DNA of 64,000 nucleotides, taken from positions 32,918 through 96,917 of IMG/VR virus record IMGVR_UViG_3300026549_000035, one strand, 5' to 3'. Each line of letters opens with the position of its first letter. The stretch's first letter is position 1. This DNA comes from a virus. Position numbers and translations under genes: made by a program. The notes below the pieces were generated by a model that ran no database searches, was not told the DNA's origin, and was given only the letters and a program-made list of their open reading frames with translations. Shown here in pieces: positions 30,728 through 64,000 of this stretch.

Positions 30728-30772
30728 AAAAAAGGGCGATAGTCAATTAAGACTATCGCCCTTTTTTTTATT
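30727..30772. terminator. bidirectional terminator
   Basis: AAAAAAAAGGGCGATAGTCAATTAAGACTATCGCCCTTTTTTTT. Confidence 0.75.
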
Positions 30773-31253
30773 CTCCCCAATTATTAATATTCTAATAAAT
30801 AATATGGGCCCCAATACAAATAGCATCAACTTCATCTTGAGTAGCTTTAATTCCATAATTTTCTGCTACCCATGCCTAAGCCGCACGTTTCTGTTCGGGT
30901 CGTGTTTTACCTTTAATTCCAAGAGTAGATTTCCAAGTTCCTGCTAATACAGCTTCTACTGGAATATTCATATCAATACATAATTCATATAAGACTCCAA
31001 AAACCTCTGCGAGAATTTTAAAAGTCTATACATTATTTACTCGCTATCCATCCATATATATATCTTCTAAAATAACTTTATCTACATTTAATTTATTGAT
31101 TATATCTTGAACTAAACATCGAGCTTGATGTAATCTTTCACCAATATTTGGCTCTTCACTTAGGTCAAATTTTCCATATTCTATTAATTCATTTCCATCA
31201 AAAAGTGCCCAACCAGTTATTCTACTGGACTAATCTAATGCTAAAATTCTCAT
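30768..31253 (-). CDS. RuvC-like Holliday junction resolvase, about 161 aa
   Basis: MRILALDQSSRITGWALFDGNELIEYGK… is the RuvC/YqgF-family N-terminal catalytic motif. Several TAG sense codons are present. The start ATG overlaps the upstream homing-endonuclease gene's stop (ATGA). Confidence 0.7.
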
Positions 31254-32092
31254 TTTACTAACTCCTTTACTTGTTCTTCTGTTAGTTTATTTTTTGTACT
31301 AATTAGTTCAGGACATTCTTTCCAATGTAAAGGTTCTTTAGTAATAGGATGTTTTCCTGCACTTTTATTTTTTCCTCTAATACATGCTCGAATATTGCTT
31401 GAAGAAAAACCGTATTTTTTTTCTACTTCTGATGTTGAATTAAAAAATTCATTTAATTCAATGCAATATAAAGGTATCTTTATACCTTTTAAAATTTCAG
31501 TCCTGTTTTTTAAATTATTAATTTTTTCTTGATTTACCTAATCTAAATATAACCAATGTATAGGCTATCCATTTGGCATAAAACCAGCATATTTTAATTT
31601 ATTTTTACAGACTTTTTGAATTGTACTATTATCAATACCAGTTGCACGCTCTGCGCTTAAAGCACTTTCAAAAGTTAAATCTAGTTCAACACAATAGACA
31701 GGTTTATTAATAATTTTTTTAAAAGTACCATCATTCCACATCTAATAATTTAATTCACGTCGTTTTTCTTTTTGCTCATCAGTTAAAGTATTTGTATTTC
31801 CACCTGCAGTAATATTATAGCCATACTTTGGATGTTGTGTATTATATTTAGCTATTAATTCTTGTTCTTTCTAATTTGCTTCTTCTTTTGTTAAATTAGT
31901 ATATAATACTTCATGGTTAAAATTATCCCATCCATATTTTAAAATAGCTAAACTAAAATGACTATTAGGTTGTTTTCTTATATATTCTAATCCATTTTTT
32001 CCCCAACGAGCCTAAAGAGTTTGTTTCGTCTACCCAATATATTTTTTACCATTAATTTTATTAGTATGACAATAAATTTTATAACTATTCAT
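31250..32092 (-). CDS. GIY-YIG homing endonuclease with NUMOD-like repeats (free-standing), about 280 aa
   Basis: MNSYKIYCHTNKINGKKYIG[TAG]TKQTL[TAG]ARWGKNG…KYGYNITAGG, where TAGs sit at the conserved Gln positions of the YIGQT and LQxRW motifs. The C-terminal region carries two repeated DNA-binding modules. Confidence 0.8.
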
Positions 32093-32172
32093 TTTTATTT
32101 ACTTACCTGCCTTTCATAAGAATATGGAAAATAAAGTAAATAAATTTGAAAATTTTGACCAGTACTTCCAAA

Positions 32173-32382
32173 TTATTTGGAAGTACTGCCAAAACCTCCC
32201 GTGCGTTTGGCGTTTGTCCATTCAAAAGTGGCATCTTCTTCAACTGTTTTATAATTCAAGAAAACACCCTAGCCTATTTTATCACCTTTTTGCAAAATTA
32301 TATCTTGAGGAAATAAATTAATTATTTGAAAATAAATATGTCCTTCATTGTCGGGATTATTATAATAATCAGAATCAATAAT
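32173..32382 (-). CDS. dut: dUTPase exon 2 (motifs 3-5)
   Basis: IIDSDYYNNPDNEGHIYFQIINLFPQDIILQKGDKIG[TAG]GVFL…RTGGFGSTSK then TAA. The TAG falls at the invariant Gln of dUTPase motif 4. The stop lies in the loop of a 13-bp perfect palindrome CAGTACTTCCAAA/TTTGGAAGTACTG. Confidence 0.8.
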
Positions 32383-33824
32383 CATTTGTTATCCTATAGG
32401 CTTTTTATCCTACAGTTCTTATATTTTTCCATCATATAAGTTCGGCGTACATTTTCATTTTTAAATAAAAAATGTTGAACACTCTTGGAGGGATTATATT
32501 TATTCACCCCCTACGCTCTACGGTGTCTCTTCGCCTTTCGCAATCGAAGAGATTACCTCGGTATTGTCCTTTTTTTTTGGAGGATTTCACCGATTTTGCT
32601 CAATTTTTAGTCGGCATTATTTGTCACTATAAAATTACTTGTTTCTAATAATAAATCTTCTATTTTTAAATCCTTTAATTGCGTATAGGGGATACGAATT
32701 AAGGGAATATGATTTTCTTTACACCATTCGTTTTTGATTAAATCATGCCTATGAGTATATTCATAATTAAAAATAGTTTCCTAAAAATGCTGTATTCCAT
32801 CAAATTCAATTAAATATTTATTATTTATATAAAAATCAAAAGGTAATAATGTTTTATCTTTGCAGGTTTTAAATTTTTTTTCAATTTCAAAAGGAATATT
32901 ATTAGAAAATAATAATTGTTTAATTTTTTCATTTCCTTTTGAAATATTACTATGTTGTCCACAGCTAAGAGTTAATCCTTGTCGTAGACTAATTCCTAAA
33001 ACGTCTCTTTCAATGCCGCAGTTACATTTACAGCGCCAATAGATAGCTCCTCCGGCACTTCTTTTATTTGTTTTATATAAAACGTGCCACATTCCAAAAG
33101 TCTGTCCAGAGATATCTTTTTCGTTGGTTTTAGAAGATATTATTTCTTTTCCTGATAAATGATTATCATACCAAATTTTAGTAATCATTCCTCTAGAAAC
33201 ATTAAGTTCTCTAGCTAATTGATTAGATGTTTTTGTATTATAAGAATCTATAATATACTATTTATCTTCTTTAGATAGTTTATATTCTTTATTTTCATAA
33301 ACATCATAATTATATTTTTTAGCATAATTTAAAATCGCTGTTGAACTACAATTGTATTTTTTGCCCATTGCCTATGCATTTTTTAATATTTTATAATCTT
33401 TAATAAAATCCTCTAATTTTATATTATCTAATTTGTTATTATGGTTTTTAAGAATATAACCATGTGATTTTAAATAATTTGCAACGGCTGTTGGGCTACA
33501 ATTATATTTTTCACCTACTTTTTGACAACTTAATAATTCTTCATAATCTTTAATTACCTGTTCAATTGGAATATTTATAATTTTTATTTTTTTATTTTTA
33601 CTATTATCATAGTTAATTTTTTTAGCATGATTAAGAATTGAAGTTTTACTACAATTATACAATTCTGCCATTTTTCTAGAACTTTTTAATTTTTGATAAT
33701 TTTTAATAAATTCTTCATTAGTGCCAAAATCCATATATTCACATCCTTTCACTTATATATGAAAGAAGTTAATATTTTATTAGAAGATTTTTGACCAAAC
33801 TTTTTATAGTTAGGAAAAAAGTCT
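32383..33824 (-). mobile_element. self-splicing intron (group I-like, type 'A/B') in dut carrying a homing endonuclease gene
   Basis: It separates dut exon 1 (…SVRSSCPLKNWLILANGVG) from exon 2 (IIDSDY…), which together restore dUTPase motif 3. The 5' exon ends in T and the intron ends …GGATAACAAATG. The 3' end holds a roughly 190-nt conserved structured core (32383-32575), paralogous to the core at 35689-35885. Confidence 0.7.
32607..33752 (-). CDS. intron-encoded homing endonuclease: triple-HTH + zinc finger + Vsr-like PD-(D/E)xK nuclease domain, about 380 aa
   Basis: Track ORFs 33372..33752 and 32781..33188 plus read-through of TAGs give three NCS(K/P/S)T(S/A)(I/V)xN(H/Y)(A/L)KK HTH repeats. 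A CKCNCG zinc finger follows. The C-terminus …LIEFDGIQHF[Q]…D…K…C…IPLIRIPY is typical of DUF559/Vsr-fold homing endonucleases. Confidence 0.65.
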
Positions 33825-34175: not shown

Positions 34176-34423
34176 TAAAAAGTCACCTCATATTTTACAT
34201 CAATAGATCTATCAGGTTCTTTTTCATTATTAAAAACCTTTTTAGCCTTTACAACCTGATATTCATCTACGATTTCACCTTTTACTTTAATATATTTAGT
34301 AGTATAACTAAAAGCAGTAAGCTCAAAAGTTGGATCTGTTAATAATTCTTGATGTAAATCTTCAACTTCTTTTACTGTTGCTACTCTATAAGTAGTAACG
34401 TCATTAATTAAATATTTTACCAT
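34175..34423 (-). CDS. hypothetical protein, 82 aa
   Basis: ORF track. It contains no TAG and ends TAA. Confidence 0.45.
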   Translation of the reverse strand: MVKYLINDVTTYRVATVKEVEDLHQELLTDPTFELTAFSYTTKYIKVKGEIVDEYQVVKAKKVFNNEKEPDRSIDVKYEVTF

Positions 34424-35058: not shown

Positions 35059-35089
35059 ATTGATATTTCCTTGTCCTTTTACTTTATTT

Positions 35090-35688: not shown

Positions 35689-36925
35689 CAATTTTGTTAT
35701 CCTACAGGCTTTTTATCCTATAGTTCTTATAGTTTCCTATAAGTTCGGCGTACATTTTCATCTACGACTTTACGTTTAGATGTTGGACACTCTTGGAAGG
35801 ATTATATTTATTCACCTTCTACGCTCTACGGTACTTCTTTGCCTTTCGCAATCAAAGAAGTTACCTCGGTATTAGCATAAATTAAATTATATTTTCTTTT
35901 AAGATAATGATTATTATGATTTTTATATAAATAATTTCGTAATAAAACTATATCTTTTTGACTAGACCATCTAATTCTTTTTATAGAACCTTCTTTAGTA
36001 ATATTATTTTTATTTAAAGAAGGTAAAGCTTTAAAAAGATTTTTCTAAACCCAAGATATAATATTTTCATTTCCACAAAAACTTATTTCACAACATTTTT
36101 GACCAGAAGATCGAATATATGTTGTAAAACCTCCATCTCCATCAAAAAGACCTCTTAAAAAAGATGAATTGTATTTAGAATTAAAAATTGGAACTTGCAC
36201 AGAAAAAGTTTTCTTTTGAGTAATTCCCATTTTTTCTAAATCTAAAATTATTTTTTTACACCCTAAGCTAAATCGTTTATAATTTTTATTACTTGTATAT
36301 ACTTTATTAACAACTCCTAAATCTTGTTCTAATAAGTGTAAGATATCTTCATCTTCTTGTTTTAACGTTAATTCTAACTAAAACTTGCTTTTTTCTGGCT
36401 AATTAGTAATTGAACCATCACTAATAATCCATCCGAGCCAATAAGCTTTTTCTGGAGAGTCAATATTTTCAAAATAATTTTCATTTAAATCAGGGTTTTT
36501 TCTTTTTGAAGAAGAAATATTTTCACAATCTTTCACAATTTTTTTTATTCTTTCATAACTAATACTATATTCTTTCTACAATTTTATTAAAGGCTCATAA
36601 TTCATATAACGTTTTTTAATTTCTTCTTCCTATTCTTTTGTTAAAACATTTTTAATTTTAGCACCTATTCTTCTAGGGAGATTATTTATTCTCGCGATTC
36701 GACTAATTGTTGATGTGCTAATATTAAACTATTTTGCTATATCTTGAGTTGATATTTCTGGATGATTTAAATATAAATCAATAATTTTTTTGTCTCTATC
36801 CGTCATAATATAAAAAACTCCTTTACTGGTTTTTCTATTAAGACTTGAAAATTTAATCAGTAGCTTTCACCGATTTTGCCCAATAATATTTTAAAAAATT
36901 TCTTTTTTAAACGGCTATTTAATTA
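35689..36925 (-). mobile_element. self-splicing intron (type 'A/B') in nrdD at the glycyl-radical motif, carrying a LAGLIDADG homing endonuclease gene
   Basis: The 5' exon ends …ACAGGT and the intron ends …GGATAACAAAATTG. The roughly 190-nt 3' core (35689-35885) is about 85% identical to 32383-32575, with compensatory base changes in two stems. Confidence 0.7.
35808..36806 (-). CDS. LAGLIDADG homing endonuclease with N-terminal HTH, about 332 aa
   Basis: …AYWLGWIISDGSIT… and …LRGLFDGDGGF… are the two LAGLIDADG motifs, with an N-terminal sigma-70 region-4-like HTH. Roughly 7 TAG codons are present, and the C-terminal about 25 codons overlap the conserved intron core. Confidence 0.75.
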
Positions 36926-37453: not shown

Positions 37454-38686
37454 AGTCTCTGCGAGACCTAACTGCATTTTTTATACCCTTCTTTTCAGAA
37501 TATTTAAAGGGATTAGACTATACCATAAATTGATTTATAAATTTCTTGATTGTCTAATTTATTTTTTCTTATTGGTAGTTTAAATTGATTAGTAATTTCT
37601 TTCCATGTAACTCCTCTAGAAATATCTCCTACAGTATTTTTTCCTATGTTATAAGAATTAGCAATTTCCTATAAAGTATTACTAGTAAATATAAGCTAAT
37701 AACAAATATTTTGGACTTCTAATTCAGATAATTTATTCTAATAAACATTCTTTTTTATATTTTTTCTAATAGGATAATTTAAATCCTTAGGACACCAGCT
37801 GTTTTTTCCCCTGTTTATTTCCCCAACAGTATAATTACTTATACCTAAAGTTAAACCGATATCTACAATAGATAAATTTAAATCATTTTTTAACATATCT
37901 ATAATCTTTTTAACTAAATCATTATTTAATTTAGTATGATTTGGGGTTTTTCTTATTGGATAATCTAAATTAGCTTCATAAAAACTTCGCCCTCTATTAA
38001 TATCACTAATACAAGTGAGACTTACTCCAAAATCATTTGCAATTGTTTGAAATGTTATATTACTATTTTTTAACAAGTCTTTAATTTCCATTTCAGCAGA
38101 ACCGCATATTAATTGTTTAGAGGTGCTTCGTTTTCCTCCTTTAGTCATATTATATCCTTTTCCAGAAGTATAATATGCATCAGTTATTTTTATTTGATAA
38201 ATTTCTCTTTCATCTAATTTTTCTAATGGAATAAAATCTTCTACAACCTCTATTGAAAAATTATCAATTCCATATTTTTTTAAAGCTCGATGAAAATACA
38301 ATTCATCATTTTTGGTATCCTATAAATGTTTATTAATTCTATCTTGTAATCTACAGGTAGTCTAACCAATATAAATTTTTCCATTAATTTTATTAGTAAA
38401 TTTATAAATTAAACCAGTTCTCATAAAAATAATTGCTCCTTTTTTACTTTTTCATATTATTATGAAAACTGGGACAATCGCATTTTTCAATTTTGTCCAT
38501 TATAGTCGTTGAACGTTCCTCTGTTCTAGAGGCTTCGCTGCGTCTGGTTGCCCAATCCTTAACGATTTTACCATATCTTGGTCGCTAACCTTGCCACTTA
38601 TATATTCCTATATAAGCTTGGTTGTTAAGGCTCTAAGGGTGTTCCCGCAATTTAGGACATTTATAGTGGGCCAGTGTTAGGCTTTA
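37454..38686 (-). mobile_element. group I intron (distinct subtype) in nrdD carrying a GIY-YIG homing endonuclease gene
   Basis: Exon 2 ends …ALKHGTLAVG (…CAGTGGGT), complementary to an internal guide-like GGCCCACTA. A roughly 260-nt 5' core with hairpins (GTGGGTTAAAGCCTAACACTGGCCCAC…) precedes the ORF. After the ORF comes a roughly 60-nt 3' tail …GTCTCGCAGAGACTCTTTAG. Confidence 0.6.
37513..38424 (-). CDS. GIY-YIG homing endonuclease, about 303 aa
   Basis: MRTGLIYKFTNKINGKIYIG[TAG]TTCRLQDRINKHL[TAG]DTKNDELYFHRALKKYGIDNF…GYNMTKGG, followed by two repeated HTH modules (…IANDFGVSLTCISDINRG…, …LTLGISNYTVGEINRGK…). Confidence 0.8.
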
Positions 38687-39023
38687 ACCCACTGCCAAAG
38701 TTCCATGTTTAAGAGCAGAACGTATACCCTCTTCTGGAATGTAACCTGCCATAGTATGATTTTCATACATAAATTTAGCAGAATTTGGATTTTGAGAACA
38801 AATCCATTCAAAACGTTCAAGTAAAGAATCTTTTGCATCAAAAATAGCTTGATCCAAAATCTTTAAAAATACTTCTACAATATCATCATCATATTCACTG
38901 TCAAAAACTTCTTTTGCTTCCATTGCTAAAGTAGGAAGGATAATTGTAACAGGACAAATATTTCCTCTACCATCTTTTAACTGACCAAAACCATTAATAT
39001 CCCAACCATTTGCAGTTCTACAC
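38687..39023 (-). CDS. nrdD: NrdD exon 2
   Basis: CRTANGWDINGFGQLKDGRGNICPVTIILPTLAMEAKE…ALKHGTLAVG. Joined to exon 1 it restores the conserved MGCR motif (…STMG|CRT…). Confidence 0.65.
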
Positions 39024-39830
39024 ATGTTTACCTAATGTTGCCATTAGCACTGACTATATCTTCTATCTTTTTATTAAGATAGCCTTCCGCTTCGAATATG
39101 TGCCTATCTCATATTCTACTCCCTTACATTCATCAGGGATAGTCGATACAGGTTTTTAATCTTTATCATATTTCCAAATATATCCATAAGCTGTTTTTTG
39201 TTTATTATTTAAACAATAATTAATTCCAACATTTTTAGATTCATTTCCTAAAAATCTAGCTGCTTCTCTTGCTGTTTGGAATCTTTTTAATAATTGTCCA
39301 TTTTTATTATACATTAAAACATCAGCAACATATTTAGAATTTTTATTACCTTTTCCTTTTTCTGAAATAATTTCTTTAATATAATCAGAATGTTTATGAT
39401 ATTCAATACCGCCTAGATCAGCATTATATCCATTTGGTAGTAAAGAATTATACTTTTGAATATATTCACGTTCTATTTTTGATATTTCATTATCTTTTAT
39501 ATTTGTTAAAAGTATTTCAAAAGAAAAATTTTCAATTCCATTTGCCTATATTGCTTTTCCTATAAATGATTTAGAACTTGGTTTTTTATGTTCTGCGAAT
39601 CGTTCATATGGATTTCTATTTGTAATACCTATATAATTTTTATTATTTAATAAATTTGTAATTTTATATAAACTATACATTTTATCACCTTCTCTTTTTA
39701 AGATGATAAAGATTAAACTTCCCACGGTCTCATCCGCATGGGACCTAACCGTTAGCGCAGTCACATTATTTGCGGCCGCACACCCTCAGGCGAGGTTCAA
39801 AAGGTTTTAGATGAGCTATAGTTTCCACTT
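39024..39830 (-). mobile_element. group I intron (IA2-like 'GCTAACGG' family) in nrdD carrying a GIY-YIG homing endonuclease gene
   Basis: The 5' exon ends …ATGGGT. The intron carries …GCGCTAACGGTTAGGTCCCATGCGGATGAGACCGTGGGAAG… (compare T4 td …AACGGGGAACC…AATCCCGTG…). After the ORF come CCTGTATCGACTATCCC…ATAGTCAGTGC then a hairpin, ending G. Confidence 0.65.
39157..39680 (-). CDS. GIY-YIG homing endonuclease, about 174 aa
   Basis: MYSLYKITNLLNNKNYIGITNRNPYERFAEHKK…NGYNADLGG…KTAYGYIWKYDKD. The start is anchored by track ORF 39546..39764. The 3' end coordinate is approximate. Confidence 0.75.
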
Positions 39831-41847: not shown

Positions 41848-43250
41848 TATTCTCCATTCTCTCCTTTATATCTTTCACTCTAAAGAATTAAACTACCATC
41901 ATCATTAACTTCTAAAATATGATATAATTGATGCCCAACAGAAGAAGCATATTTTTTAGTTACAAAAGTATCTCCAAGTCTAATTCCTTGCACCATAATC
42001 ATATTACCTCTATTAAAAAAACTTTTTTCTATTACATGTTTAACTCCGTCTAATCCTTTTTCTGAAATTTGTTTATCAAATAATGCAAAATATTCTTTTC
42101 TGAATTTTACATTAACAACTCCGTTAGTCGTTAAAATTGTTACTGTACCTTTTGTCTTATTTTTAGCAATACAAGTTCCACAAATACGACAAAGTTTAAA
42201 GATATGAATAGGCTTATTCTTTTTATAAAAGGTTTTCTCTATTTCAGGTTCTTCAGGTAAATTATAAAAATTTTTTAAACCATATCTTTCAAAATCAACC
42301 TTTGCTAATTCATGTTCATGTTTATAGAAGCAAAGAACTTCCATTTCCCAAGCAGATAAATTCGCCTTTCCCGCATATTTATCCCAATCTGCTTTAAATA
42401 TTCGAGTATTTAATTCAGATAAAATTTCTTGTCCATCTTGCGCAAGCCATTCTCTAAAAACATCCATATAAGATTGATATATTTTATCCCATTTTTTCAT
42501 ATTTAACGTATTATCTGAGTTAATTAAATTAGCGACTTCTATTTCTACTAAAAAATCAATTGCTCGATTATCAACATGATAACATACTGAATCATTCTTT
42601 ACTTTACATATAGCTTTTAAATATCTATTAAATTCATAAACTCTAAAAGCTAATTTTCTTTCTTCTGTATCTAATGGAACTAAGTCTTGTTTTAATAAAG
42701 TTGGAAAATTTTGTAATGTTAATCTAGCTTTTTTATCACAAGTTTCCCATATATACCAAGCCATAGCTTTTTTTCTATCCATCATTTCATCAAAAGCTCC
42801 CGCTTTAATTAATGATATCATAGGTTGTTTTTTTGGTTTTACTTTTTGATAGAAATCTTTTATTGAACTATATGGACGATTTTTAATAATCTGATTCACA
42901 AAATCATCGTTTACATTTAATAAAGCTTTCATTCCAAAAAGAATTCGATTGTTTTCTACATCAGGTTTAAATCCAAAATCAGAAGTATTAATATTTACTA
43001 GACTAACATTAATACCTGCATTAATAATTTCATTCAAAGCTTTTGCAACTTTACCATAATCAGTACTTGCTGCTTTTTTTTGAGTTTCATTTTCTTCTGA
43101 TTCTAATACATTTTCATCATCGTCATCTTCTTCTAATGAACCACTGTTTACAACTAAGCAAGCCGTATCCCAATATATAGGATTCCAATGAGTTCCTAAA
43201 TATAAAGTTTGCGCTCCAACAAAACTATATGCTAAAGCGTGTATGCATAA
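41847..43250 (-). CDS. dnaE: DNA polymerase III alpha (DnaE-type) exon 3
   Basis: …CIHALAYSFVGAQTLYLGTHWNPIYWDTACL… aligns with DnaE HSAAYALVSYQTAWLKAHYP…, and the C-terminal region runs to TAA at about 41847. The 5' boundary is approximate. Confidence 0.65.
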
Positions 43251-44462
43251 TTAATTTATTACTGACTATTTTTTACAGGTGTTGTAGTGAAGTTGGCAAA
43301 ACTTCTTACCTGCACACTGTTTCCCAATGCGTATCAATAGCATCAGTACTCTCTGTCTAACCAGAGATAGTCGATACAACATTTCTTATTTAAAAGGTTT
43401 ATTATATTATTTATTTCTTAAAGGATATTGATATTCTTTTTGTTTATGCGAACGTCCAGAATTAATATTTTTTACAGTAGAATAAGATTTTCCCCATTTA
43501 TCAGCAATTTTTTTTAATGATATATCAGAAGTTAAAATATCTTTAATAATTCCTTTTACCCAAATTTCATTATCTTGTTTTCTACAGCCTTTATTACAAA
43601 GAGGATATTTTTCTTCTTTATCATAAAAATATTTTCCTGTATTTATCATAGATAAAAATCCAGCGCTTTTTATATTAAAATCTTTTTGAATAGAACTATA
43701 TTTTTCTCCAGATTTTATTCTTTTTTTAATTTCTTTAATTTCTTTTTGAGAAAATTTACTTTTAGCATTTTTCTTTAAAGGATAATCAAAGTCAGGATTA
43801 AAAAAATTAGTTCCTGTATTGATATTTACTAAAAAAGTTCTTTTTAACTTTGGAGAATACAAATTCTCAATATCATCATATTCTTCATCATTTAACAATC
43901 TTTTTTGAATATCTTTAATCTCATTCTCTGTAAATAATTTTGAGCGTTTTAATTTTTCTTCATAGCTTAAAGGAGGCTTTGGACATCCCTCTCCACCAAT
44001 AGTTACATTATATCCATTTTCATCTTTTAAAGAATGATAATAAGCAATAAAAAATTTTTCTCTTTCATTTATAAAATCTTGACTTTCTTCGTCTGCAATC
44101 TCTTCTAAAACTTCATAATCAAAATTTTCTATGCCATATTTTCTAATTGCGCAATGAAAAGGAAGCCAATAGCCAAAAGCTTTTTCATTAAATGATTCAC
44201 TTTTATGTCCATTATATCTTTTTTGTAAATTATTCGTTTGTCCAATATAACAATGTCCATTTATTTTATTTGTAAATTTATAAATATAAGTCATCTTTTT
44301 TCACTCCTCTCATGGATATTTGAAAAATATAATATCTCTTTTAAATAGATTTGTCACGAGATTTTACCCTCGTTAGCAATTATTTTATTTATTTGCCAAA
44401 TAAATTATCAAAATAATTACCCCCGTGATGAGCGGGTTAAGTGTGTAAGCGCCATTACAACG
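43251..44462 (-). mobile_element. group I intron (IA2-like family) in dnaE carrying a GIY-YIG homing endonuclease gene
   Basis: It splits the conserved DnaE motif GY(S/G)F|N-K-S-H-S-A-A-Y. The 5' part carries …GCTAACGAGGGTAAAATCTCGTGACAAATC…. The 3' part carries …TTGTATCGACTATCTC…AAAAATAGTCAGTAATAAATTAATTATG. Confidence 0.6.
43407..44294 (-). CDS. GIY-YIG homing endonuclease, 295 aa, TAG-free
   Basis: ORF track: MTYIYKFTNKINGHCYIGQTNNLQKRYNGHK…GYNVTIGGEG…, with repeated C-terminal modules. Confidence 0.85.
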   Translation of the reverse strand: MTYIYKFTNKINGHCYIGQTNNLQKRYNGHKSESFNEKAFGYWLPFHCAIRKYGIENFDYEVLEEIADEESQDFINEREKFFIAYYHSLKDENGYNVTIGGEGCPKPPLSYEEKLKRSKLFTENEIKDIQKRLLNDEEYDDIENLYSPKLKRTFLVNINTGTNFFNPDFDYPLKKNAKSKFSQKEIKEIKKRIKSGEKYSSIQKDFNIKSAGFLSMINTGKYFYDKEEKYPLCNKGCRKQDNEIWVKGIIKDILTSDISLKKIADKWGKSYSTVKNINSGRSHKQKEYQYPLRNK

Positions 44463-45665
44463 CTAAATGAATAACCCATCTGAGGTCCAGCTCCGTAACG
44501 CCAAACATATTGACCTAATTTTTCACTTTTAGCTTGCCGCAAAACCTTATCTCTTAATTCAGGAATTTTATCCATCAATTTTTTACCAACCACTTTACGA
44601 GCTTTGTTAGCATCTCCTAAACTAAAATTACAAATATTAGGATCCATTAACATTTTCATAAGCTGCTCTTGGCTTGGTGGAACTCCATATGACTATTTAA
44701 AATATGGTTCTAATATTTTTTGTTCAGTTTTAGTTAAACCAAAATCATCCATTTCTTTATACCATAAAGAAATATCATTTTTATAACGATAATATTTATC
44801 TATAGGACGTTCTTCGCCTTCTTCACCCATCAATCTCATTAATCCATTTGCATCAGCCATTTCAAGAATAGATTGAGGTTTAAGAAGTTTAGCGGTTTTT
44901 ACACCCTCTGTGCCTTCAAATTGGAAGGTATTAATAACAGACATCTTTCCTAATGCTTCCCATATTTTTTTATCAGTTTCTATTGGAAGAACATTTGGAT
45001 GAAGATATTTATTATAAATTTCTCGAAGAGATAAATCTTTTTCAATTTCACCGTCTTCTTGAAGAAATTGAATTGTTTGAACAATTTTATCTTGTGCTTC
45101 AGTTACAAGAAAATCATATTTTGTTAATCCCATATATTCGGCATCATGTAAATCATATTGAGTAATAATTTTGCCTTTTGGAGTTTTCATAAAAGCACTA
45201 TGTTCAAATGGATCACCATCAAATAAAACAATTCCAGAAGCATGAGAACTTCTTTTATTTATTGTTCCTTCAATAGCTAAAATAATATCTAATAATCCGG
45301 GGTAATTATTTACTTCATAAATAAAAGTTTTTACAGGTTTTCTATGTTTTTCTTCATTACCATGTACAACATCTTTAATACTCCATAAAAATCCTCGTTC
45401 TTGTGGAATTAAAGAAGCCATATACTGGGCTTGGTCAACATCGATACCATCTGGATACTCTTCACTACGATAACCTCTACATGCGGTTAAAACAGCAGAC
45501 TTAGAACCTTCTGTCCCAAAAGTAGAAATACGAGCACAACCAAAAATTTCTTTTGCCCATTCTGGAACATCATTATTAAACATTTTACTGCGTTCAGTTG
45601 CAATTTTTTGAAGAATTAAATTACATTTAGATGGACATATATCTATATCAATATCCTTTTATTAT
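44463..45665 (-). CDS. dnaE: DNA polymerase III alpha (DnaE-type) exon 2
   Basis: DIDIDICPSK…ISTFGTEGSKSAVLTACRGY…AIEGTINKRSSHASGIVLFDGDP…GLTKYDFL…LGDANKARKVVGKK…GYSF. These are the DnaE core motifs (PDIDIDF, RHASTHAAGVV, AMGKKK). Boundaries are approximate. Confidence 0.65.
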
Positions 45666-46815
45666 TGGACTATATCTTTTACAATAAACTACTGAGAATA
45701 ATTACTTCATTTATTGTAAGAGTGCGCTACGGAATAGTGCTTATCTCTATTCCTCTATATTAGTCTCTACACTCCAATAAAAACCTTTATATAATGTTTT
45801 ATTTTTAATGGCTTTATCTAAACCTGTATGACCTTTCATATTTAAAAAATCTAATACTGCTGTTTTAGCATTAAAAATTTTTATTAAATTATAATCTTTA
45901 TCATACATATAAACTTTTTTACCATTAATAGCATTATTTTTACTTTTTCCATACATTCCATTTTTTACTCCTGAAGTTTTTCCTTTACTATGTTCAGACA
46001 TTAATTTTTTAGATTCTTCAGTATGATGTTTTCCATACATTCCATTTTTTGCTCCTTTAGTAGCCTCTGACATAGTTTTACGATATTCTTCAGTTTTCAT
46101 ATAAGATGTATCTCTATTTTTACGAATTTTTTCTTTAGTCTCTTCTGTCAAATGAATACCATATCTAGGATTATTTTTTCCTTTATATTTATTACTCATT
46201 TTTTGTGAATATTTTTCTTTTTCTTCTTTACTCCATCCAGCTCTTGTATTACCACCATTTCCGCCTTCGTGAATATTATAAAAATTTTCATCTTGAACTG
46301 CGTTAAAAGCAGAAATAAATTCTCTTTCTTTATTAAAATTTTCTTCTTCATTAGATGAAATAAAAAGAATTTCTTTTTTAAAATATTCTATGCCTATTTT
46401 TTTTATATCTTCTTTTAACTTAGTTCCACTACCTAAGTATTTATCATCTAATTCTCCGTAGTGTTTTCCGATGTATTTTTTACCAGTTAAAAGATTTGTT
46501 GTTAAATAAATATAATGTTGTTTCATATTATCACCCTTTCATTATTATATGATTAAAGTGATATTGACTTTGACAGACATTGACCAAGATTTTTATATAG
46601 TTTTTATTAAAGCACGGTATTACGTGTCTAGCCTTTTCAGGACCACTCGCTCTCTTAGTCAGCTGATTCGCATATTATAAAATATATATAATATCTTATT
46701 TTGCTGATACCGTTAGCTTGTGCTTTACCAATTTTTGACAGGAATTTTTGGTAAGCCACAAACACCTCTTAGCAGAGTTCACACTCTTTTTTTACAACTC
46801 GGCAATATCAATATT
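45666..46815 (-). mobile_element. group I intron (diverged member of the IA2-like family) in dnaE at the PDIDIDF motif, carrying a GIY-YIG homing endonuclease gene
   Basis: Exon 1 …ERIELGSL and exon 2 DIDIDIC… rebuild the conserved DnaE motif. The 5' part carries …GCTAACGGTATCAGC…ATACCGTGCTTTAAT…. The 3' part carries …ATATAGTCCAATAATAAAAGG. The repeated GAATTTTTGGTAA motif also occurs at 46725-46760. Confidence 0.55.
45747..46526 (-). CDS. GIY-YIG homing endonuclease with NUMOD3-like repeats, 259 aa, TAG-free
   Basis: ORF track: MKQHYIYLTTNLLTGKKYIGKHYG…NIHEGGNGG… plus repeated NxxYGxHxTEEtK modules. Confidence 0.85.
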   Translation of the reverse strand: MKQHYIYLTTNLLTGKKYIGKHYGELDDKYLGSGTKLKEDIKKIGIEYFKKEILFISSNEEENFNKEREFISAFNAVQDENFYNIHEGGNGGNTRAGWSKEEKEKYSQKMSNKYKGKNNPRYGIHLTEETKEKIRKNRDTSYMKTEEYRKTMSEATKGAKNGMYGKHHTEESKKLMSEHSKGKTSGVKNGMYGKSKNNAINGKKVYMYDKDYNLIKIFNAKTAVLDFLNMKGHTGLDKAIKNKTLYKGFYWSVETNIEE

Positions 46816-48206: not shown

Positions 48207-48269
48207 ATTCTCTTTTTCCGCCCTTTCTTTTTTATTCTTTTTATATTATAAAATATATTTTTATAAAAG

Positions 48270-52004: not shown

Positions 52005-53070
52005 CTCACGAAAATCCAGTGTTTCCACTGGCGCTGACTATTTTTTAATATTATAAAAATAATATTATATCTCTTTCGGTTTTCAAATGCTTCGTTTCCT
52101 AAAACATTACTATGTATCAATAATAGCCCTACTCCCCTGCATTTCAACATAAGGGATAGTCGATACAGGCTTCATTTTATAGAAGAATAACTTTCTTTTA
52201 AAGCAATTCTTCTTACTGTAGATTTGGATAAAAAATTATATATTTTTTGTATATCTACAAAACTTTCTCCATTATTATATCTTTTTCGAATATCAAGAAC
52301 TTGTTCTCTAGAGCATTTGGCTCTTCCATTTTTAACCCCTTGATTAGCCTCTGAAGAATATTCTGCTCTAGTTTTACTATTAGTCGGGATAAGATATTCT
52401 GCTCCTATATTAGGATAGCCATGCCCAAGCCATACTTTTTCAAAACTTCCAAACGGATGATTTTTATAATCTTGATAAACATCTTTTTTTCGCTCTTTTA
52501 AAAAACGTCTTTTTCTAATATCTAAAACTTCTTTATTAGTAAAAACCGCTCTTGAATTATTTTCTCCGTTTTGATTACAAGCATCTCCGCCTTTAGTTAA
52601 ATTATATCCAATCTATTTATTGTTAGAATTATAAAAACTAATCCAATACTTTTCTCGTTCTTCCATAATAGATAAATTATTTATAAATTCTAATACTTCA
52701 ACCTTAGTAATCTTTCCGTATTTTTTAATAGCAAGATCACAAGGATATAATTTCTAATGAGAATTATGATTATGCTCTTTCATTCTTCTTTTTAAATCTA
52801 TAGTGCAGCCTATATAAATTTTATTATTTGGATAATTAATTTTGTAAATACAAGCCATATTAGGCTATAATTGAGAAACTTTATAAATCATATAATTTTT
52901 TTCCTTTCTTTCAGTTTAAAAATGATTCCCACGAGATTATCATGTATAATAGAAATTCATCATGTCATCATGTCTTCTATTATATTTAGACTTCCTCGTT
53001 AGCCAATTAATTAAAATTGACCCCTCTGATAAAAGGAAAAGATATATTAGGCCAGTTTACTTTTAGCCCT
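52005..53070 (-). mobile_element. group I intron (IA2-like family) in recJ carrying a GIY-YIG homing endonuclease gene
   Basis: It splits the RecJ motif LDLVA(L/V)G|T(V)AD. The 5' part carries …GGCTAACGAGGAAGTC…ATAATCTCGTGGGAATC…. After the ORF stop come AGCCTGTATCGACTATCCC…AAAAATAGTCAGCGCCAGTGGAAACACTGGATTTTCGTGAG. Confidence 0.6.
52172..52858 (-). CDS. GIY-YIG homing endonuclease, about 228 aa
   Basis: MACIYKINYPNNKIYIGCTIDLKRRMKEHNHNSH[Q]KLYPCDLAIKKYG…GYNLTKGGD…, with 2 TAGs and TGA stop immediately followed by the conserved intron motif. Confidence 0.75.
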
Positions 53071-55355: not shown

Positions 55356-55875
55356 TTAATCTTCATCTTCATCATCTGGAAATGCACTTGCTATATGTAT
55401 ACGAGTATCATCAATTGGAATTAATTCATAATCCCATCCCGTTGCAAATAAAGGACGAATTCTGCATACTCCTAAATCTGCTTTACACCATAAATAAATT
55501 CCTTTATATCTACCTCGTCTATTTTTATAAACTGATATTTTAATTGTAGGTTTATCAAAGGTGCCTGTTGCTAAAATTTTTTCTAATCCAGTATAATCAT
55601 CTTCTTTTGCCATTAAAAGAATAGCTCCAAAGTCAATCTTATCTGCAATACTTTTTGCACCTCGAAGTAAATTTTGATCAGGTGTTTCACTTGTCTAATA
55701 ATCTCCATTTAATTGTGTAGCAGACATAATAAAAATACCTTCTCGATTACAAATATCTTTTAATCTATTAGATAACATAAATAAAATATTATCTTCACGA
55801 AGTTTTATTCCTCCACTTCTACGAGTAATTTCTTCAAGAATTTTCATAGAAGTATGTATATAATCATGACACGTT
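55356..55875 (-). CDS. dnaB: replicative DnaB-like helicase exon 2 (C-terminal RecA-fold part)
   Basis: …CHDYIHTSMKILEEITRRSGGIKLREDNILFMLSNRLKDICNREGIFIMSATQLNG…DFGAILLMAKEDDYTG…ISVYKNRRGRYKG…. The 5' boundary is approximate. Confidence 0.65.
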
Positions 55876-56186
55876 CTTCCTTTATTTCTAAAGGCGCTGA
55901 CTAACTCTTACTTGCGGTCGCAACCACAAGGACACCTTTTCGAAATGCGTATCAATAGCATTTCTACTCCCTCGCCCAGAAGGCAAAAGGGATAGTCGAT
56001 ACAGGTTCAAATATTTATTCAATTGAAAGAGAATGGATAAATATAAGTTTCCCACGGGATTACCATGCTATTTTATAGTTTAGGCTTCCCCGTTAGCCTT
56101 ATTTATAGTTATAAATAAGACCCCGTTGATAAAACAGTAAAGTGTTTCATTCTCCCACACCCTTTTCGGGTTGAAGACATACTAAA
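55876..56186 (-). mobile_element. ORF-less group I intron (IA2-like family) in the dnaB-like helicase gene
   Basis: About 310 nt carrying …AAGGCTAACGGGGAAGCCTAAACTATAAAATAGCATGGTAATCCCGTGGGAAAC… then …GAACCTGTATCGACTATCCC…GCTATTGATACGCATT…AAGAGTTAGTCAGCGCC then a hairpin. It has the same core as the ORF-containing introns but no endonuclease ORF. Confidence 0.6.
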
Positions 56187-57204: not shown

Positions 57205-57403
57205 GGGCTTCGACCTCCTCTTGATCTAAAAATGTAAATCTTTTTCTTCTTATAGGCTCTCTTTTTGGAGGCTATATAATAATTTCCCTTACTTTTGGAA
57301 CATATGCAGAAATATCTTTTTCTTTATTCTTTTGGCTTAATAGCCATTTATTATAATAATATCTTTTAGCTTCTTCATATATCCATGGAACAATCGTGAT
57401 ACT
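57185..57403 (-). CDS. Zn-finger hypothetical protein exon 2
   Basis: SITIVPWIYEEAKRYYYNKWLLSQKNKEKDISAYVPKVREIII[Q]PPKREPIRRKRFTFLDQEEVEARGKQIH then TGA. It overlaps the dnaB-like gene start by about 20 nt. Confidence 0.45.
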
Positions 57404-58591
57404 CTTATGTTTTCATAAGCACTGACTATATCTTAATAAATTAAATATATTAATTTATAAAACCTGTTTCGAACTACGTATCAATAGTAGCCCTACTCTC
57501 CCGATCCGGAGATAGTCGATACAGCATTATTAATCATTATTGTCTAATGGGATAATTTAAATTATCTATATGATGAATTTTTCCACTATTAATCCTTCCT
57601 ATCGTGCTTGTAGAAAGATTAAATTTTTTTCCAATATCAGTAAAAGATAATTTCGTTGTTAATAATAATTGAATAATAGAATTATAATCTGTTGAAGTCT
57701 TTTTTCTTTTTTTGCGAATAGGATAAGAGTAATCTTTCTAAATATAAGTTATTCCTCTATTTATTTTTGAAATAGTAGTATAACTCACATTGTATTTTTT
57801 GGCAATTTCTTCTAAAGATAAAATATTTTCTTCTAAATCAACATATACCTCTTTTAAAGATTGGTTAGATGTAAATTTTGCAGAATAATTGTTAATTCCA
57901 CTTCCTGCCCCTTTCGGTTTAGGAGGTTTTCTCAATGGATAGTTTAAAAACTCATTATAATATCTTTTTCCTAAATTAATTTCACTAATTGCTTCTGGAG
58001 ACATATTGTATTTTGAAGCTATTTCATATATATATAATTCAGTATGATTTATTAATAAATCATATACTTCAGATAATGTTTTTTTGTTTAATTTAGCTGA
58101 TGAATTATATACTCCTAGAGCGGCTCCGTCTCCGCCGGCAGTCAAATTATATCCTTTTTCTTTATTATTAAAAGTATCGTAATATTTTATCCAATATCTT
58201 TCTTTATCTGCCATTTCTTTTCTGGAACAATTCTAACAATCTTCTAAAATTTTTACTTCATAATTGTATTTTCTCATAGCACAATGAACAGGTAATAAAT
58301 CATTATTTCTCGCATCTATTTTATGTTCTTTTATTCTATCTTTAATATTATTACTCATTCCAATATATCTTTTTTTATTGGAAAAATTAATGGAATAAAT
58401 TCCTCTTTTAATTTCTTGCTTATTCATAAATCCTCACCTCGTTTATATATGAATAAACAAGCAAGACAATTAATTAAACTTGCCACGGGATTACCATGCT
58501 TTTAAAGTTTAGGCTTCCCCGTTAGCTTTACCTGCAGCCGCAGGTAAAACCCCCTTGATGAAAGGGTAAAGGTTTTACAGGCATTGTTACA
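57404..58591 (-). mobile_element. group I intron (IA2-like family) in a Zn-finger gene carrying a GIY-YIG homing endonuclease gene
   Basis: The 5' exon ends …GGAATTGGT. The intron carries …GCTAACGGGGAAGCCTAAACTTTAAAAGCATGGTAATCCCGTGGCAAG…. After the ORF come GCTGTATCGACTATCTCC…AGATATAGTCAGTGCTTATGAAAACATAAG, then the exon. Confidence 0.6.
57537..58427 (-). CDS. GIY-YIG homing endonuclease, about 296 aa
   Basis: Track ORFs 58233..58427 (MNKQEIKRGIYSINFSNKKRYIGMSNN…) and 57738..58214 (…GYNLTAGGDG…) are in frame and joined by one TAG. C-terminal HTH repeats follow. Confidence 0.8.
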
Positions 58592-58934
58592 TACCAATTC
58601 CACCATTGGCTTTATCTATTGGATTCTTTTTTATTTCATAAAAATATTCTAAAGAACGACGAATACCCGAATAAGTATATTCTGGATGTTCTTGTAAATA
58701 TCTTTTTATCTATAAAGTAATTTTTCCGTCCATATGTTCTAAATTAAATAATTTAATAATATAAGTTTCTAACGCTATTCGTTCTTCTTCTTTCTTTTTT
58801 TCTTCTTCGGATAATACTCCTGCACAAAGGGCGTGAGCATATCGACGAGAACTTGTTAATACGGCAGGATATTTATCTCTGTCAAATCTCTTTTTACAAA
58901 TTGAACAAGTGACATAATGAGCCATCTGCGTCAC
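58592..58934 (-). CDS. Zn-finger hypothetical protein exon 1
   Basis: MAHYVTCSICKKRFDRDKYPAVLTSSRRYAHALCAGVL… is a C2HC-like finger, continuing through one TAG to …EIKKNPIDKANGGIG. Confidence 0.45.
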
Positions 58935-59262: not shown

Positions 59263-59291
59263 GTTTTTCCTTTTATATTATACTATATTTT

Positions 59292-59336
59292 TATAAAAAA
59301 ATCAAGCCCCGAGGAAAATATCCTCAGGGCTATAAT
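59292..59336 (-). terminator. rho-independent terminator
   Basis: AGCCCTGAGGATATTTTCCTCGGGGCT hairpin followed by a T-run, downstream of the Sak4-like gene. Confidence 0.65.
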
Positions 59337-61437: not shown

Positions 61438-61470
61438 ATTTTTTTTTCTCTCCTTTAAAATATCTATATA

Positions 61471-62376: not shown

Positions 62377-62457
62377 AAAATTACCTCCATTATTTTATTT
62401 CTTTTTCATAAGAATATAAAAAAATAAAAAGATAAAATAATGGATTTTGACCAATTT

Positions 62458-62829
62458 TTAAATAATTTTTATATCTTTTCCTTGTTGTGTAATACTGTAT
62501 ATCACCGGGTCTTGACCAACTTTTTCTACAAAACCATCATTAACTAGTTTACGGATAGATCCAGATACCGTTCTAGAAGAAATAAACATTCCTTCGGCAA
62601 TATCTTTTGCTTTCCATGTATTAGTTTCTGGGTGTTGCTGTAAAAAAGTTAAAATAAGTTTTCCATTTTCAGTGAATAAAGGTTTTTCTCCTTTATCCGC
62701 TCCGCCTTTAAATTTTTCCCAATACTCATTTAAGTTTTCTGGCATAGGGTTTCTTTCAAAGTTACTTTCTACATAATTAATAAAATCTTGTTTTAATGAC
62801 ATTTTTTTTATAAACTCCTTAATTTTCAT
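62458..62829 (-). CDS. winged-helix DNA-binding protein (putative transcriptional regulator), 123 aa
   Basis: ORF track: …AEGMFISSRTVSGSIRKLVNDGFVEKVGQDPVIYSITQQGKD is MarR/PadR-like wHTH. Confidence 0.45.
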   Translation of the reverse strand: MKIKEFIKKMSLKQDFINYVESNFERNPMPENLNEYWEKFKGGADKGEKPLFTENGKLILTFLQQHPETNTWKAKDIAEGMFISSRTVSGSIRKLVNDGFVEKVGQDPVIYSITQQGKDIKII

Positions 62830-62889
62830 TTTCTATATATATTATATAATATTTTTATTTGAAAGTCAATCTTTTTATCTTATTTTATT

Positions 62890-63738
62890 TTATTCTTTAT
62901 ATCTAAAAATATATCCTTTACAACTTTTTGAACGTCCCTAACAAACAGAGCATATATTACCTGGAGTAGTTTTAAGTGCTCTAGCTGCTTCAGATATACT
63001 TTTAAATTCTTTTATAAATTTTCCATCTTTAGAAAATTGCTAAACAACTCTATAAGGCGGTTTATATTTTATTTTTTCTATTGTGGAGGAATAACTCCAA
63101 TAATATCCATATGCTGTTTTTTGTCTTCCTTTACAGCAAGCGCAAATTTTAGATTTATCTATATTTAATTTATTTGCGGCTTCTGTTAAAGAAGAAAATT
63201 TTTGTATAAAATTTCCGTTTAAATCAAATTGATATATATCTTTAGATTTTTGTTTTTCTTTAGGTAAAATAATTGTATTATCATCTGCATATTTCCATTG
63301 ATAATCTCCAGCATAAAATCTTTTTGGGTAATGCTAACATACGCTAATTATTTTTTCACTAGAAGTATTAGTATCTAAAGCAGCTTCTACAATTGAATCA
63401 TACTCTTTAACAAATTCTCCTAATTCATTAAAGGATTGAACCGCTCTTTTTAAACTTCCTTCTCCTCCTAAAGTCATATTATATCCTTCTTCATAAGAAT
63501 TATATTCTTTAATCCAAAAAATTTCTCTTTCGTTTAATAATTCTGGAGGACATTCTTCTATTACTTCAAAAGAAAAATTATTTAATCCATATTTTTTAAA
63601 AGCTTGATGAATAGCACAATTGTCTTTACTTCTTTTATGTTTTTCCCATCTTGCTTTTATATCTAATGATTGTCCAATATATATTTTATTATTTATTAAA
63701 TTTTTAATTTTATATATTCCACACATTAATTTTATCAC
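62890..63738 (-). CDS. GIY-YIG homing endonuclease with three C-terminal repeat modules (free-standing), about 282 aa
   Basis: Track ORF 63334..63738 (MCGIYKIKNLINNKIYIGQSLDIKARWEKHK…GYNMTLGGEG) continues through 3 TAGs with three …EAA…L……I..C..G..K.A.GY.W.Y repeats. Confidence 0.8.
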
Positions 63739-63802
63739 CTCTATTTATTTATAAAAGTATTAGCTATAAAATTAAATAAAAGTGGCCTGTTTTTAATAAA
63801 AA

Positions 63803-64000
63803 TTAATTAGTTAAAAATTCTTTAGCATATGGAAGAGTTTCAATCCAATGACAAAATTCCTACCATTCTGGCAAACGATGATCATGACGCTAGATATATA
63901 TATTTCTAAGACAACGATAATTTGTTGTCATTCTTGCAGTCAGTATAAATCCTGCGGGATTTGTATAAAGAATTTCTAAATATTTTTCTTTAGCCTATTC
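63803..64000 (-). CDS. hypothetical protein (3' end; gene continues beyond window)
   Basis: The minus-strand frame is open from the window edge through TAGs to TAA at about 63803 (…TARMTTNYRCLRNIYI[Q]RHDHRLPEW[Q]EFCHWIETLPYAKEFLTN). Confidence 0.3.

Follow-up and report, generated by a model that had tools for sequence, protein, structure and literature searches.

Phage T4 carries group I introns in td, nrdB and nrdD, with the endonucleases I-TevI/II/III, along with 12 free-standing seg and mob genes (PMC2988022). These homing endonuclease genes (HEGs), 15 in about 169 kb or about 0.09 per kb, take up 11% of its coding potential (PMC2988022); in CB7, 21 HEGs take up 7% (PMC9769974). Zeta crAss-like phages contain up to 14 introns and 3 inteins, and the Zeta and Delta crAss-like phages, which use alternative codes, have been credited with an "unprecedented density" of group I introns and inteins (PMC7886860). 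In the Jug jumbo gut phages, group I introns average 18.5 per genome, 95 of 104 genomes have a fragmented nrdD, DNA polymerase genes are split as well, endonucleases of the HNH, GIY-YIG, LAGLIDADG and PD-(D/E)xK families are present, and metatranscriptomes confirm splicing (PMC12880540). The TGA-recoded Agate phages have an intron HEG in an early gene, proposed to be blocked until late infection (bioRxiv 10.1101/2021.08.26.457843). Here, we analyze a 64,000-nucleotide (nt) stretch of phage DNA (positions 32,918 to 96,917 of IMG/VR record IMGVR_UViG_3300026549_000035; "the window"), in which an initial annotation, made from the letters alone, had called 13 HEGs of four families. We find that the load of HEGs and introns is real and unusually dense locally, and that the replication module of this phage has very probably been colonized, heavily and recently, by self-splicing group I introns and homing HEGs.

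Results

A recoded phage segment dense in selfish DNA

With a GC content of about 28%, the window is a low-GC phage segment. Its plus strand carries a structural module at 1-26.6 kb and its minus strand a replication module at 26.6-64 kb. Under the standard code its open reading frames (ORFs) are shattered and cover 30.8 kb; with TAG read through, coverage rises to 65.8 kb and a 3,308-amino-acid (aa) tape-measure-like ORF comes to light. Because relatives most often carry glutamine opposite the TAG codons of the window (584 residues, with lysine the runner-up at 98), we conclude that the window reads TAG as glutamine. Its DnaE is ~40% identical to that of ~140-kb Enterococcus phages and ~38% identical to YorL of SPbeta, and the source phage is a TAG-to-Gln recoded, SPbeta/Enterococcus-phage-like siphovirus. 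Relatives were drawn from IMG/VR, where the N-terminus of NrdD has 426 relatives on contigs of up to about 200 kb; individual loci of relatives are given L numbers below.

Introns (9,638 nt) and free-standing HEG ORFs (3,102 nt) together make up 38.3% of positions 30768-64000. The replication module holds 12 HEGs in 33.2 kb (0.36/kb) and the window as a whole 13 in 64 kb (0.20/kb), with HEG ORFs occupying 16.5% of the window. The initial annotation had described this level as approaching that of T4/T-even or staphylococcal Twort-like phages. High density is borne out, but the comparison undersells the local figure, given the 15 HEGs and 11% of T4. Among 76 homologous loci of relatives, HEG density has a median of 0, a 90th percentile of 0.13/kb and a maximum of 0.29/kb (L112), as counted with hidden Markov models (HMMs) built from the window's own HEGs, so that other HEG types in relatives may be under-counted. 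The distance from dnaE to dut provides a check independent of these HMMs. At 16,031 nt, this span is the longest of 68 genomes; without its six introns it would be 8,953 nt, compared with a median of 9,216 nt in relatives.

Thirteen homing endonuclease genes of four families

The 13 genes and four families hold up: all of the ORFs are in place (Table 1), and profile searches support the family assignments. Among the nine GIY-YIG genes, eight score above cutoff with PF01541, while 45741 is backed instead by TIGR01453, NUMOD3 and PHROG 314. The GIY/YIG and "GYN" motifs are legible in all nine proteins, although 45741 shows no evident Arg following YIG. Matches to NUMOD1, NUMOD3, I-HmuI_NUMOD-like or helix-turn-helix (HTH) modules occur in 31250, 37513, 39156, 45741, 57537 and 62890; in 3699, 43407 and 52172, no named domain matches the C-terminal extension. 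The LAGLIDADG protein has both of its motifs, YWLGWIISDGS and FLRGLFDGDGG. The HNH protein (EFHHLNP...N...CANCHRELH) matches PHROG 2255, 35854, 3106 and 1271, all annotated as HNH endonuclease, at 4e-25 to 5e-16. With a TAG codon at its penultimate position, 45741-46526 may end at 45747 or two codons further on.

The two EDxHD (Vsr-like) proteins, 61471 and 32607, are 38.6% identical over their C-terminal 189 aa, and 61471 also matches PHROG 559, 9084 and 7140. Residues E111, D113, H117, H131 and D132 are invariant across 22 sequences, both window proteins included. Searches of these candidates against the PDB, whether with single sequences or with profiles, gave no match; only a fold comparison, made with the structure predicted for a 69%-identical homolog, succeeded, and it supports a C-terminal Vsr-like nuclease fold. 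Within 32607, a triple 150-nt direct repeat (33285-33716, minus strand) encodes three tandem HTH modules of the KxxxxYNCSxT type, analogous to the repeated NUMOD/HTH modules of I-Bth0305I.

Profile searches of the remaining window ORFs revealed no additional HEG. Over their full lengths, the nine GIY-YIG proteins are no more than about 36% identical to one another, which rules out recent intragenomic copies; the two EDxHD proteins are 39% identical. This low mutual identity points to independent acquisitions rather than copying within the genome.

Some finer claims about gene neighborhoods could also be assessed. The ATGA stop/start overlap of 31250 with the RuvC-like gene is as first described. 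HEG 61471 does adjoin the next gene, 60490-61437; its stop codon, said to lie about 30 nt before the ribosome-binding site (RBS), is instead 33 nt before the ATG and ~17 nt before the RBS. That next gene had been called single-stranded-DNA-binding-protein-like, an identity for which we find no profile support; its only match is PHROG 2367, of unknown function.

Nine insertions that splice in silico

To place splice sites, we relied on conserved motifs of the interrupted genes and on the group I rule that U precedes the 5′ site and that introns end in G. This mapped nine insertions, 304-1,442 nt long, in dut, nrdD (three), dnaE (two), recJ, dnaB and a phrog_4680-family gene (geneX), and they interrupt these genes at conserved motifs. 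All nine have U at position -1 and a terminal G, though the sites were chosen with that rule in mind.

Before splicing, the flanking frames correspond to consecutive gene pieces: NRDD 2-262, 263-360 and 362-541; DNA_pol3_alpha 7-100 and 103-259; dUTPase 5-35 and 69-128; DHH and RecJ_OB are likewise separated. In-silico ligation of the exons restores an intact ORF for all nine insertions. Spliced NrdD gives a single match to NRDD (2-562 of 562, 471 bits), spliced DnaE a single stretch of DNA_pol3_alpha (7-259 of 260), spliced Dut a single stretch of dUTPase (16-128 of 129), and spliced DnaB a single match to DnaB_C (9-245 of 255). The spliced 596-aa RecJ-like protein covers phrog_2484 in one stretch (10-561 of 564, 508 bits), and the spliced 180-aa geneX product matches phrog_4680 at 1-156 of 164, with 78 bits versus 52 bits for exon 1 alone.

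Eight HEGs are intron-borne and five are free-standing, four of these in the replication module and one in the structural module. This division, already proposed in the initial annotation, is supported by the flanking gene pieces, by in-silico splicing and by empty sites in relatives. The initial list of elements did not include the ninth intron, which lies in dnaB and lacks an ORF. Two other placements were considered and rejected. The intron with HEG 57537 is not a dnaB insertion: dnaB begins at a GTG at 57204, preceded by an RBS of its own, and the interrupted gene is instead homologous to phrog_4680. Nor does HNH gene 49478 lie in an intron of the helicase gene, as there is no upstream helicase exon and the gap there is only 62-116 nt in relatives.

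Table 1. Homing endonuclease genes and predicted introns of the window (window coordinates).
Feature	Position	Strand	Type	Location and support
HEG 3699	3699-4298	+	GIY-YIG	Free-standing, structural module, upstream of both g4291 and the tape-measure-like gene (3,308 aa); PF01541 30.8 bits
HEG 31250	31250-32092	-	GIY-YIG	Free-standing, between dut and RuvC-like gene; PF01541 23.0 bits (cutoff 22.6)
HEG 32607	32607-33734	-	EDxHD (Vsr-like)	dut intron, near intron 5′ end
HEG 35808	35808-36806	-	LAGLIDADG, double-motif, N-terminal HTH	nrdD-c intron; LAGLIDADG_3 1e-8, 35.6 bits (cutoff 22.5)
HEG 37513	37513-38424	-	GIY-YIG	nrdD-b intron, 3′ of ribozyme core
HEG 39156	39156-39680	-	GIY-YIG	nrdD-a intron
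HEG 43407	43407-44294	-	GIY-YIG	dnaE-b intron; PF01541 32 bits, TIGR01453 66 bits; sole HEG without in-frame TAG
HEG 45741	45741-46526	-	GIY-YIG/NUMOD3	dnaE-a intron; TIGR01453 "group I intron endonuclease" 66 bits (cutoff 56); PHROG 314
HEG 49478	49478-49993	-	HNH	Free-standing, between g50074 and superfamily 1 (Dda/RecD-like) helicase gene
HEG 52172	52172-52891	-	GIY-YIG	recJ-like intron; PF01541 40 bits
HEG 57537	57537-58427	-	GIY-YIG	geneX (phrog_4680-family) intron; PF01541 27.6 bits
HEG 61471	61471-62376	-	EDxHD (Vsr-like)	Free-standing, between g62458 and 315-aa gene 60490-61437; 10 in-frame TAG
HEG 62890	62890-63726	-	GIY-YIG + NUMOD1 + I-HmuI-NUMOD repeats	Free-standing; PF01541 46.7 bits, NUMOD1 5e-23
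geneX intron	57395..58592	-	td-like core	Exons 58593-58925 and 57188-57394, phrog_4680-family gene
dnaB intron	55870..56173	-	td-like core	304 nt, ORF-less
recJ-like intron	52007..53064	-	td-like core	
dnaE-a intron	45656..46820	-		After residue 462; HEG sits between P4-P6 and P7-P9 core halves
dnaE-b intron	43246..44459	-	td-like core	After residue 861
nrdD-a intron	39023..39830	-	td-like core	After residue 422 (TMG|CRT)
nrdD-b intron	37475..38686	-		After residue 534
nrdD-c intron	35689..36925	-		After residue 717 (RRVTG|YLTG, glycyl-radical site); LAGLIDADG ORF 3′ end overlaps ribozyme core
dut intron	32383..33824	-		NGVG|IIDSDY

RNA features of the introns

Rfam matches to the introns appeared only in targeted scans of about 320 nt. 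In these, the group I model RF00028 matched at full length the dnaB intron (55878-56143, 25.4 bits, E=1.2e-4) and nrdD-b (38450-38720, 35.4 bits, E=1.2e-7), and it matched the dut intron over 32443-32640 (28.8 bits, E=1.1e-5); the gathering score of the model is 50. The other introns lack a match because ORFs inside the core block detection.

The geneX, dnaB, recJ, dnaE-b and nrdD-a introns share a common core, GTATCGACTAT...GGGAGTAG...ATAGTCAG, which we take to resemble that of T4 td and hence call td-like. Two hairpins between P7 and P3′ are the hallmark of subgroup IA. When the 3′ cores of these five introns were aligned with eight from relatives, 95.8% of pairs in P7.1, P7.2 and P9 were standard, and in 16 of 23 pairs both partners had changed. 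Covariation across the 13 cores scores 0.61, against 0.18 for shuffled controls (0/500 reach 0.61) and 0.06-0.13 for slid partners, a result that covers the td-like type only and to which the invariant, hence uninformative, P7 does not contribute. The conserved P7.2 loop of the td-like cores, TATTGATAC, finds its complement in a TATCAA located within the 5′ half of the same intron (e.g. 57470-57490 and 58540-58555, minus strand); in the nrdD-a type, the loop reads AGATAGGCA and the 5′ element GCCT(G)A. These elements may form a covarying tertiary or pseudoknot contact.

A different core is shared by nrdD-c and dut (88% identity, 35780-35873 versus 32472-32565, minus strand). The two introns combine this one core with different HEG families, LAGLIDADG and EDxHD, at different positions, and in nrdD-c the ribozyme core itself encodes the end of the LAGLIDADG ORF, its last ~20 codons. 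Unannotated DNA in the C. difficile phages phiCD211 and phiCDKH02 is 80-92% similar to this core, and a likeness to it is also found inside the tape-measure gene of an Arcanobacterium phage.

A U.G-anchored P1 helix is above chance in dnaE-a (8 bp, 7/1000 shuffles), nrdD-a (7 bp) and nrdD-b (7 bp). Because these three are the only such cases, intron boundaries rest mainly on the empty sites described below. For dnaE-a, the 8-bp P1, a AAGATATAGTCC element, exact excision and a HEG of the group I intron endonuclease family together suggest a group I intron. Altogether, the nine group I introns fall into at least four ribozyme types.

Presence and absence in relatives

Comparison with relatives, which the initial annotation had put forward as a check, reveals presence/absence polymorphism for 12 of the 13 HEGs and for all nine introns, the exception being an allele replacement at 62890. 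The spliced nrdD (2,241 nt) and its L001 counterpart form a gap-free alignment of 92.7% identity that spans the three junctions; of 80 relatives, at least 70 have an uninterrupted nrdD. The nrdD-a site is filled in L017, L045, L046 and L052, while the nrdD-b and nrdD-c sites are filled in none of the 80. For dut, all 75 relatives are uninterrupted. For dnaE, 59 of 77 are; L001 is filled at both window sites, and at the dnaE-b site both L001 and Enterococcus phage EF1 have the same core. L081, which shares its source metagenome with L001 and is 94-97% identical to the window in protein, has uninterrupted geneX (180 aa, 96% identity) and dnaB (514 aa), and recJ is uninterrupted there and in 33 other loci. 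The empty sites are thus defined at the nucleotide level for the three nrdD introns (L001) and at the protein level for the others.

The free-standing genes behave similarly. The gap between dut and the RuvC-like gene is below 150 nt in 69 of 74 relatives, and a homologous 31250-like HEG is found there in five. At the position of HNH gene 49478, all seven informative relatives have a gap of 62-116 nt, compared with 668 nt in the window. HEG 61471 is missing from L081, in which 33 nt separate the two neighboring genes, and a 3699-like HEG occurs at the same position in 2 of 66 relatives (L118 and L137); related loci for this comparison were located through the capsid-like gene, a search with g4291 having returned none. 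In total, a strain 93-97% identical to the window (L001/L081) lacks at least seven of its elements, which implies recent turnover. The slot of 62890, upstream of g62458, holds a GIY-YIG gene in most of the AAA_24-centered loci (L081-L115) that reach that far. In L081, a strain ~95% identical elsewhere, the gene in this slot (7114-7389) is only 39% identical in the catalytic domain, indicating allele replacement in a slot that itself stays fixed.

Relatives also use insertion sites that are unused in the window. Their AAA_24 gene is interrupted at residues 50/52, 66/68, 117/121 and 140/142, and their dnaB at 228/229 and about 420; loci with such extra sites include L112, L099/L102/L105/L115 and L113/L114. 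L112 (IMGVR_UViG_3300013426_000018, a 174-kb contig) has at least five insertions in about 7 kb. These extra sites imply that other members of the clade are heavily infested too, in different genes. In L102, L105, L106 and L112, the dnaB codon that is interrupted by the ORF-less intron in the window bears a GIY-YIG-containing insertion, so the ORF-less intron would seem to be either a derivative that lacks the HEG or a form from before invasion.

Other features of the window

TAG codons number 2.03 per 100 codons in structural genes, 1.02 in replication genes and 1.36 in HEGs. Use is lowest in DnaE (0.30) and NrdD (0.40), while RecJ is high at 2.18. This graded usage agrees with the published trend of heavier recoding in late genes. 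The coiled-coil tape-measure-like ORF (4927-14853, plus strand) has 96 in-frame TAG codons, and its length, far above that usual for tape measures, implies a very long tail. Upstream on the same strand, 57-881 and 969-2570 are tandem paralogous virion structural genes, both phrog_2729, with inter-copy DNA repeats of 77-82% identity; the first copy appears shorter at its N-terminus.

In the replication module, a conserved 45-nt element with the layout of a sigma-70-like promoter, GGCTTGACT-N17-TATAAT, occurs on the minus strand at 48232-48276, 59264-59308 and 62828-62872, directly upstream of dnaE, g59062-59262 and g62458-62829. These elements are probably early or middle promoters of the module. 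Just past the RuvC-like gene lies a strong GC-rich hairpin with a T-run (AAAAAAAAGGGCGATAG...CTATCGCCCTTTTTT; 30728-30769, minus strand), which resembles an intrinsic terminator and gave chance Rfam matches to CsrC and MicX.

Discussion

On the reading that we favor, the replication module has been colonized by nine putative group I introns, eight of them with their own HEG, and by four free-standing HEGs. The introns would self-splice from mRNA, so that the host genes remain functional. Each endonuclease would cut the empty allele in a co-infecting relative, or a nearby site in the case of a free-standing HEG, and recombinational repair would then copy the element in. Because the GIY-YIG HEGs share no more than about 36% identity and a closely related strain lacks at least seven elements, the present load would reflect repeated, recent and independent invasions.

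Several observations weigh against this interpretation or temper it. Rfam found no intron in the whole window at gathering thresholds, nor in a 34-kb scan in E-value mode, and every RF00028 match in the targeted scans scores less than the curated gathering threshold of 50 bits. Rfam matched nothing in the 5′ half of the dnaE-a insertion, and the P1 helices of geneX, dnaB, nrdD-c and dut are indistinguishable from those of shuffled controls. HNH gene 49478 has no match in Pfam and NCBIfam searches, and the fold comparison for the EDxHD candidates concerns a homolog, not a window protein. HEG 62890 occupies a clade-conserved position and may be a long-term or domesticated resident. TAG is not enriched in HEGs over resident genes (1.36 versus 1.02 in replication and 2.03 in structural genes), and a tRNA search of the 64-kb window found none, so the window itself contains no suppressor tRNA. 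Finally, splicing, endonuclease activity, target sites and the effect of TAG on timing are predictions from sequence.

Could the interrupted genes do without splicing? For some T4-like phages, nrdA and DNA polymerase genes are known to be "fractured" by free-standing HEGs, such that the fragments are translated separately and assembled as subunits. All insertions in the window but one hold a complete HEG with its own Shine-Dalgarno-like sequence, as this arrangement would have it, and it would also account for the silence of the whole-window Rfam scans. However, the downstream fragments have no start codon at the junction (in the 41850-43250 fragment, the first Met is residue 106), the junctions fall within motifs such as TMG|CRT, RRVTG|YLTG and NGVG|IIDSDY, and one exon is merely 29 codons long. 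Moreover, conserved non-coding cores with covariation and group I model matches lie beside the ORFs, and the dnaB insertion has no ORF at all. We therefore regard fractured genes as very improbable here. That the insertions are inteins or group II introns has next to no probability. Both kinds of element do occur in phage replication genes (PMC7886860, PMC12350094), but the insertions of the window are out of frame and contain stop codons, profile searches found no Hint, intein or reverse-transcriptase domain in any of the ORFs, Rfam gave group I matches and zero group II matches, and the HEG families and insertion sizes (0.3-1.4 kb) fit group I.

A different question is whether the load says anything about this particular genome or is simply the normal state of its clade. 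Relatives do have introns in dnaE (~452, 462, 637, 860), nrdD (422, 587) and dnaB (228, 344, 420), their AAA_24 gene is interrupted at four sites, L112 reaches 0.29 HEG/kb, and published Zeta crAss-like and Jug phages have 14-18 introns per genome. Nonetheless, no HEG is detected in the median relative locus, and density at the 90th percentile is 0.13/kb, compared with 0.36/kb here; among 68 genomes, this one has the longest distance from dnaE to dut; no relative was seen to carry the nrdD-b, nrdD-c or dut insertions; and the 93-97% identical strain is without at least seven elements. A mere lineage property is thus rather unlikely. It is also conceivable that some of the endonuclease-like genes have been domesticated and are kept for the benefit of the phage, in inter-phage competition, anti-defense or regulation. 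HEGs such as SegB reportedly aid phage competition or immune evasion; in addition, most relatives whose loci reach that far have a GIY-YIG gene upstream of g62458, and the GIY/YIG/R/E/N motifs of the GIY-YIG genes are intact, save for the Arg of 45741. Against this stand the presence/absence polymorphism of 12 of the 13 HEGs, typical of selfish homing, and the allele swap in the 62890 slot between ~95%-identical strains, which speaks for turnover rather than conservation. Domestication is, on this evidence, quite unlikely.

How stop-codon recoding relates to colonization by introns and HEGs merits separate consideration. As the initial annotation had recognized, the two are compounded in this phage: 12 of the 13 HEG ORFs contain in-frame TAG, in eight cases within the first 65 codons, so that a full-length endonuclease can be made only once TAG is decoded as Gln. 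This dependence would probably delay cleavage until the late, recoded phase of infection. It is tempting to speculate that recoding lets the lineage tolerate a heavy endonuclease load, with the code switch serving as both timer and safety catch for DNA cutters and, in addition, as a barrier confining these HEGs to recoded phages. We consider this combined proposal rather doubtful. If true, it would explain why intron/HEG infestation and recoding are found together in unrelated clades (Zeta crAss-like, Agate and the window phage). The window also supplies numerous independent cases in which the published proposal of endonuclease delay by recoding could be examined.

The findings have practical implications as well. 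Gene callers shatter such genomes, owing to TAG stops and introns, and the splice map shows a route to the real proteins. Together, the window, L001 and L081 constitute a natural experiment on homing dynamics, with exact empty-site targets for at least eight uncharacterized endonucleases. Phages with essential genes saturated by self-splicing introns make up a short list, to which the window contributes a TAG-recoded, DnaE-encoding lineage of Firmicutes type.

With T4, the window shares a mixture of intron-borne and free-standing GIY-YIG and HNH genes, nucleotide-metabolism targets including nrdD, HEGs looped out of the ribozyme, and presence/absence polymorphism between close relatives. It differs in number (9 introns and 13 HEGs in 64 kb, versus 3 introns and 15 HEGs in ~169 kb), in having the LAGLIDADG and EDxHD families, and in its TAG-recoded HEG ORFs; blastn detects no similarity of the window to T4. 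The Zeta and Delta crAss-like phages are likewise gut-type phages, of 145-192 kb, recoded at TAG or TGA, and have core genes split by many group I introns, which were identified via endonuclease domains (PMC7886860). These, however, are Bacteroidetes-infecting Crassvirales with PolA or PolB, whereas the window encodes DnaE and a giant tape-measure gene and has SPbeta/Enterococcus-phage affinities. The Jug phages use the standard code, have genomes of 360-402 kb, and carry introns that are mostly ~206 nt long and ORF-less, in contrast to the window, where eight of nine introns hold a HEG.

Enterococcus phage EF1/EF5 (MF001358), in which a dnaE insertion is annotated as "HNH homing endonuclease # Phage intron", provides a parallel at the level of single sites. 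Its DnaE, 40% identical to that of the window, is interrupted at the same two positions (461/463 and 856/858), and the second insertion has the same GTATCGACTAT...ATAGTCAG core; the first carries an HNH gene where the window has GIY-YIG. EF1 is a cultured phage, which presumably uses the standard code. The EDxHD proteins of the window are only 18-20% identical to I-Bth0305I of the EDxHD family (PMC3239194, PDB 3R3P), with no sequence-level match. A further difference is an additional Cys-rich strand module, placed between HTH and nuclease domains, and the intron-borne protein resides in dut, not recA, while 61471 is free-standing with a different N-terminus. Like the Agate phages, the window has intron HEGs with in-frame reassigned stop codons, but there a single HEG family is concerned, with TGA read as Trp and statistically enriched, as opposed to 12 HEGs of four families with TAG read as Gln and unenriched. 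Massive intron and HEG infestation, including that of recoded phages, is already on record, and the window is an extreme case of it in a Firmicutes-type, DnaE-encoding lineage. To our knowledge, with nine introns within 26 kb (a single nrdD holds three) and four endonuclease families, it is locally among the densest examples known.

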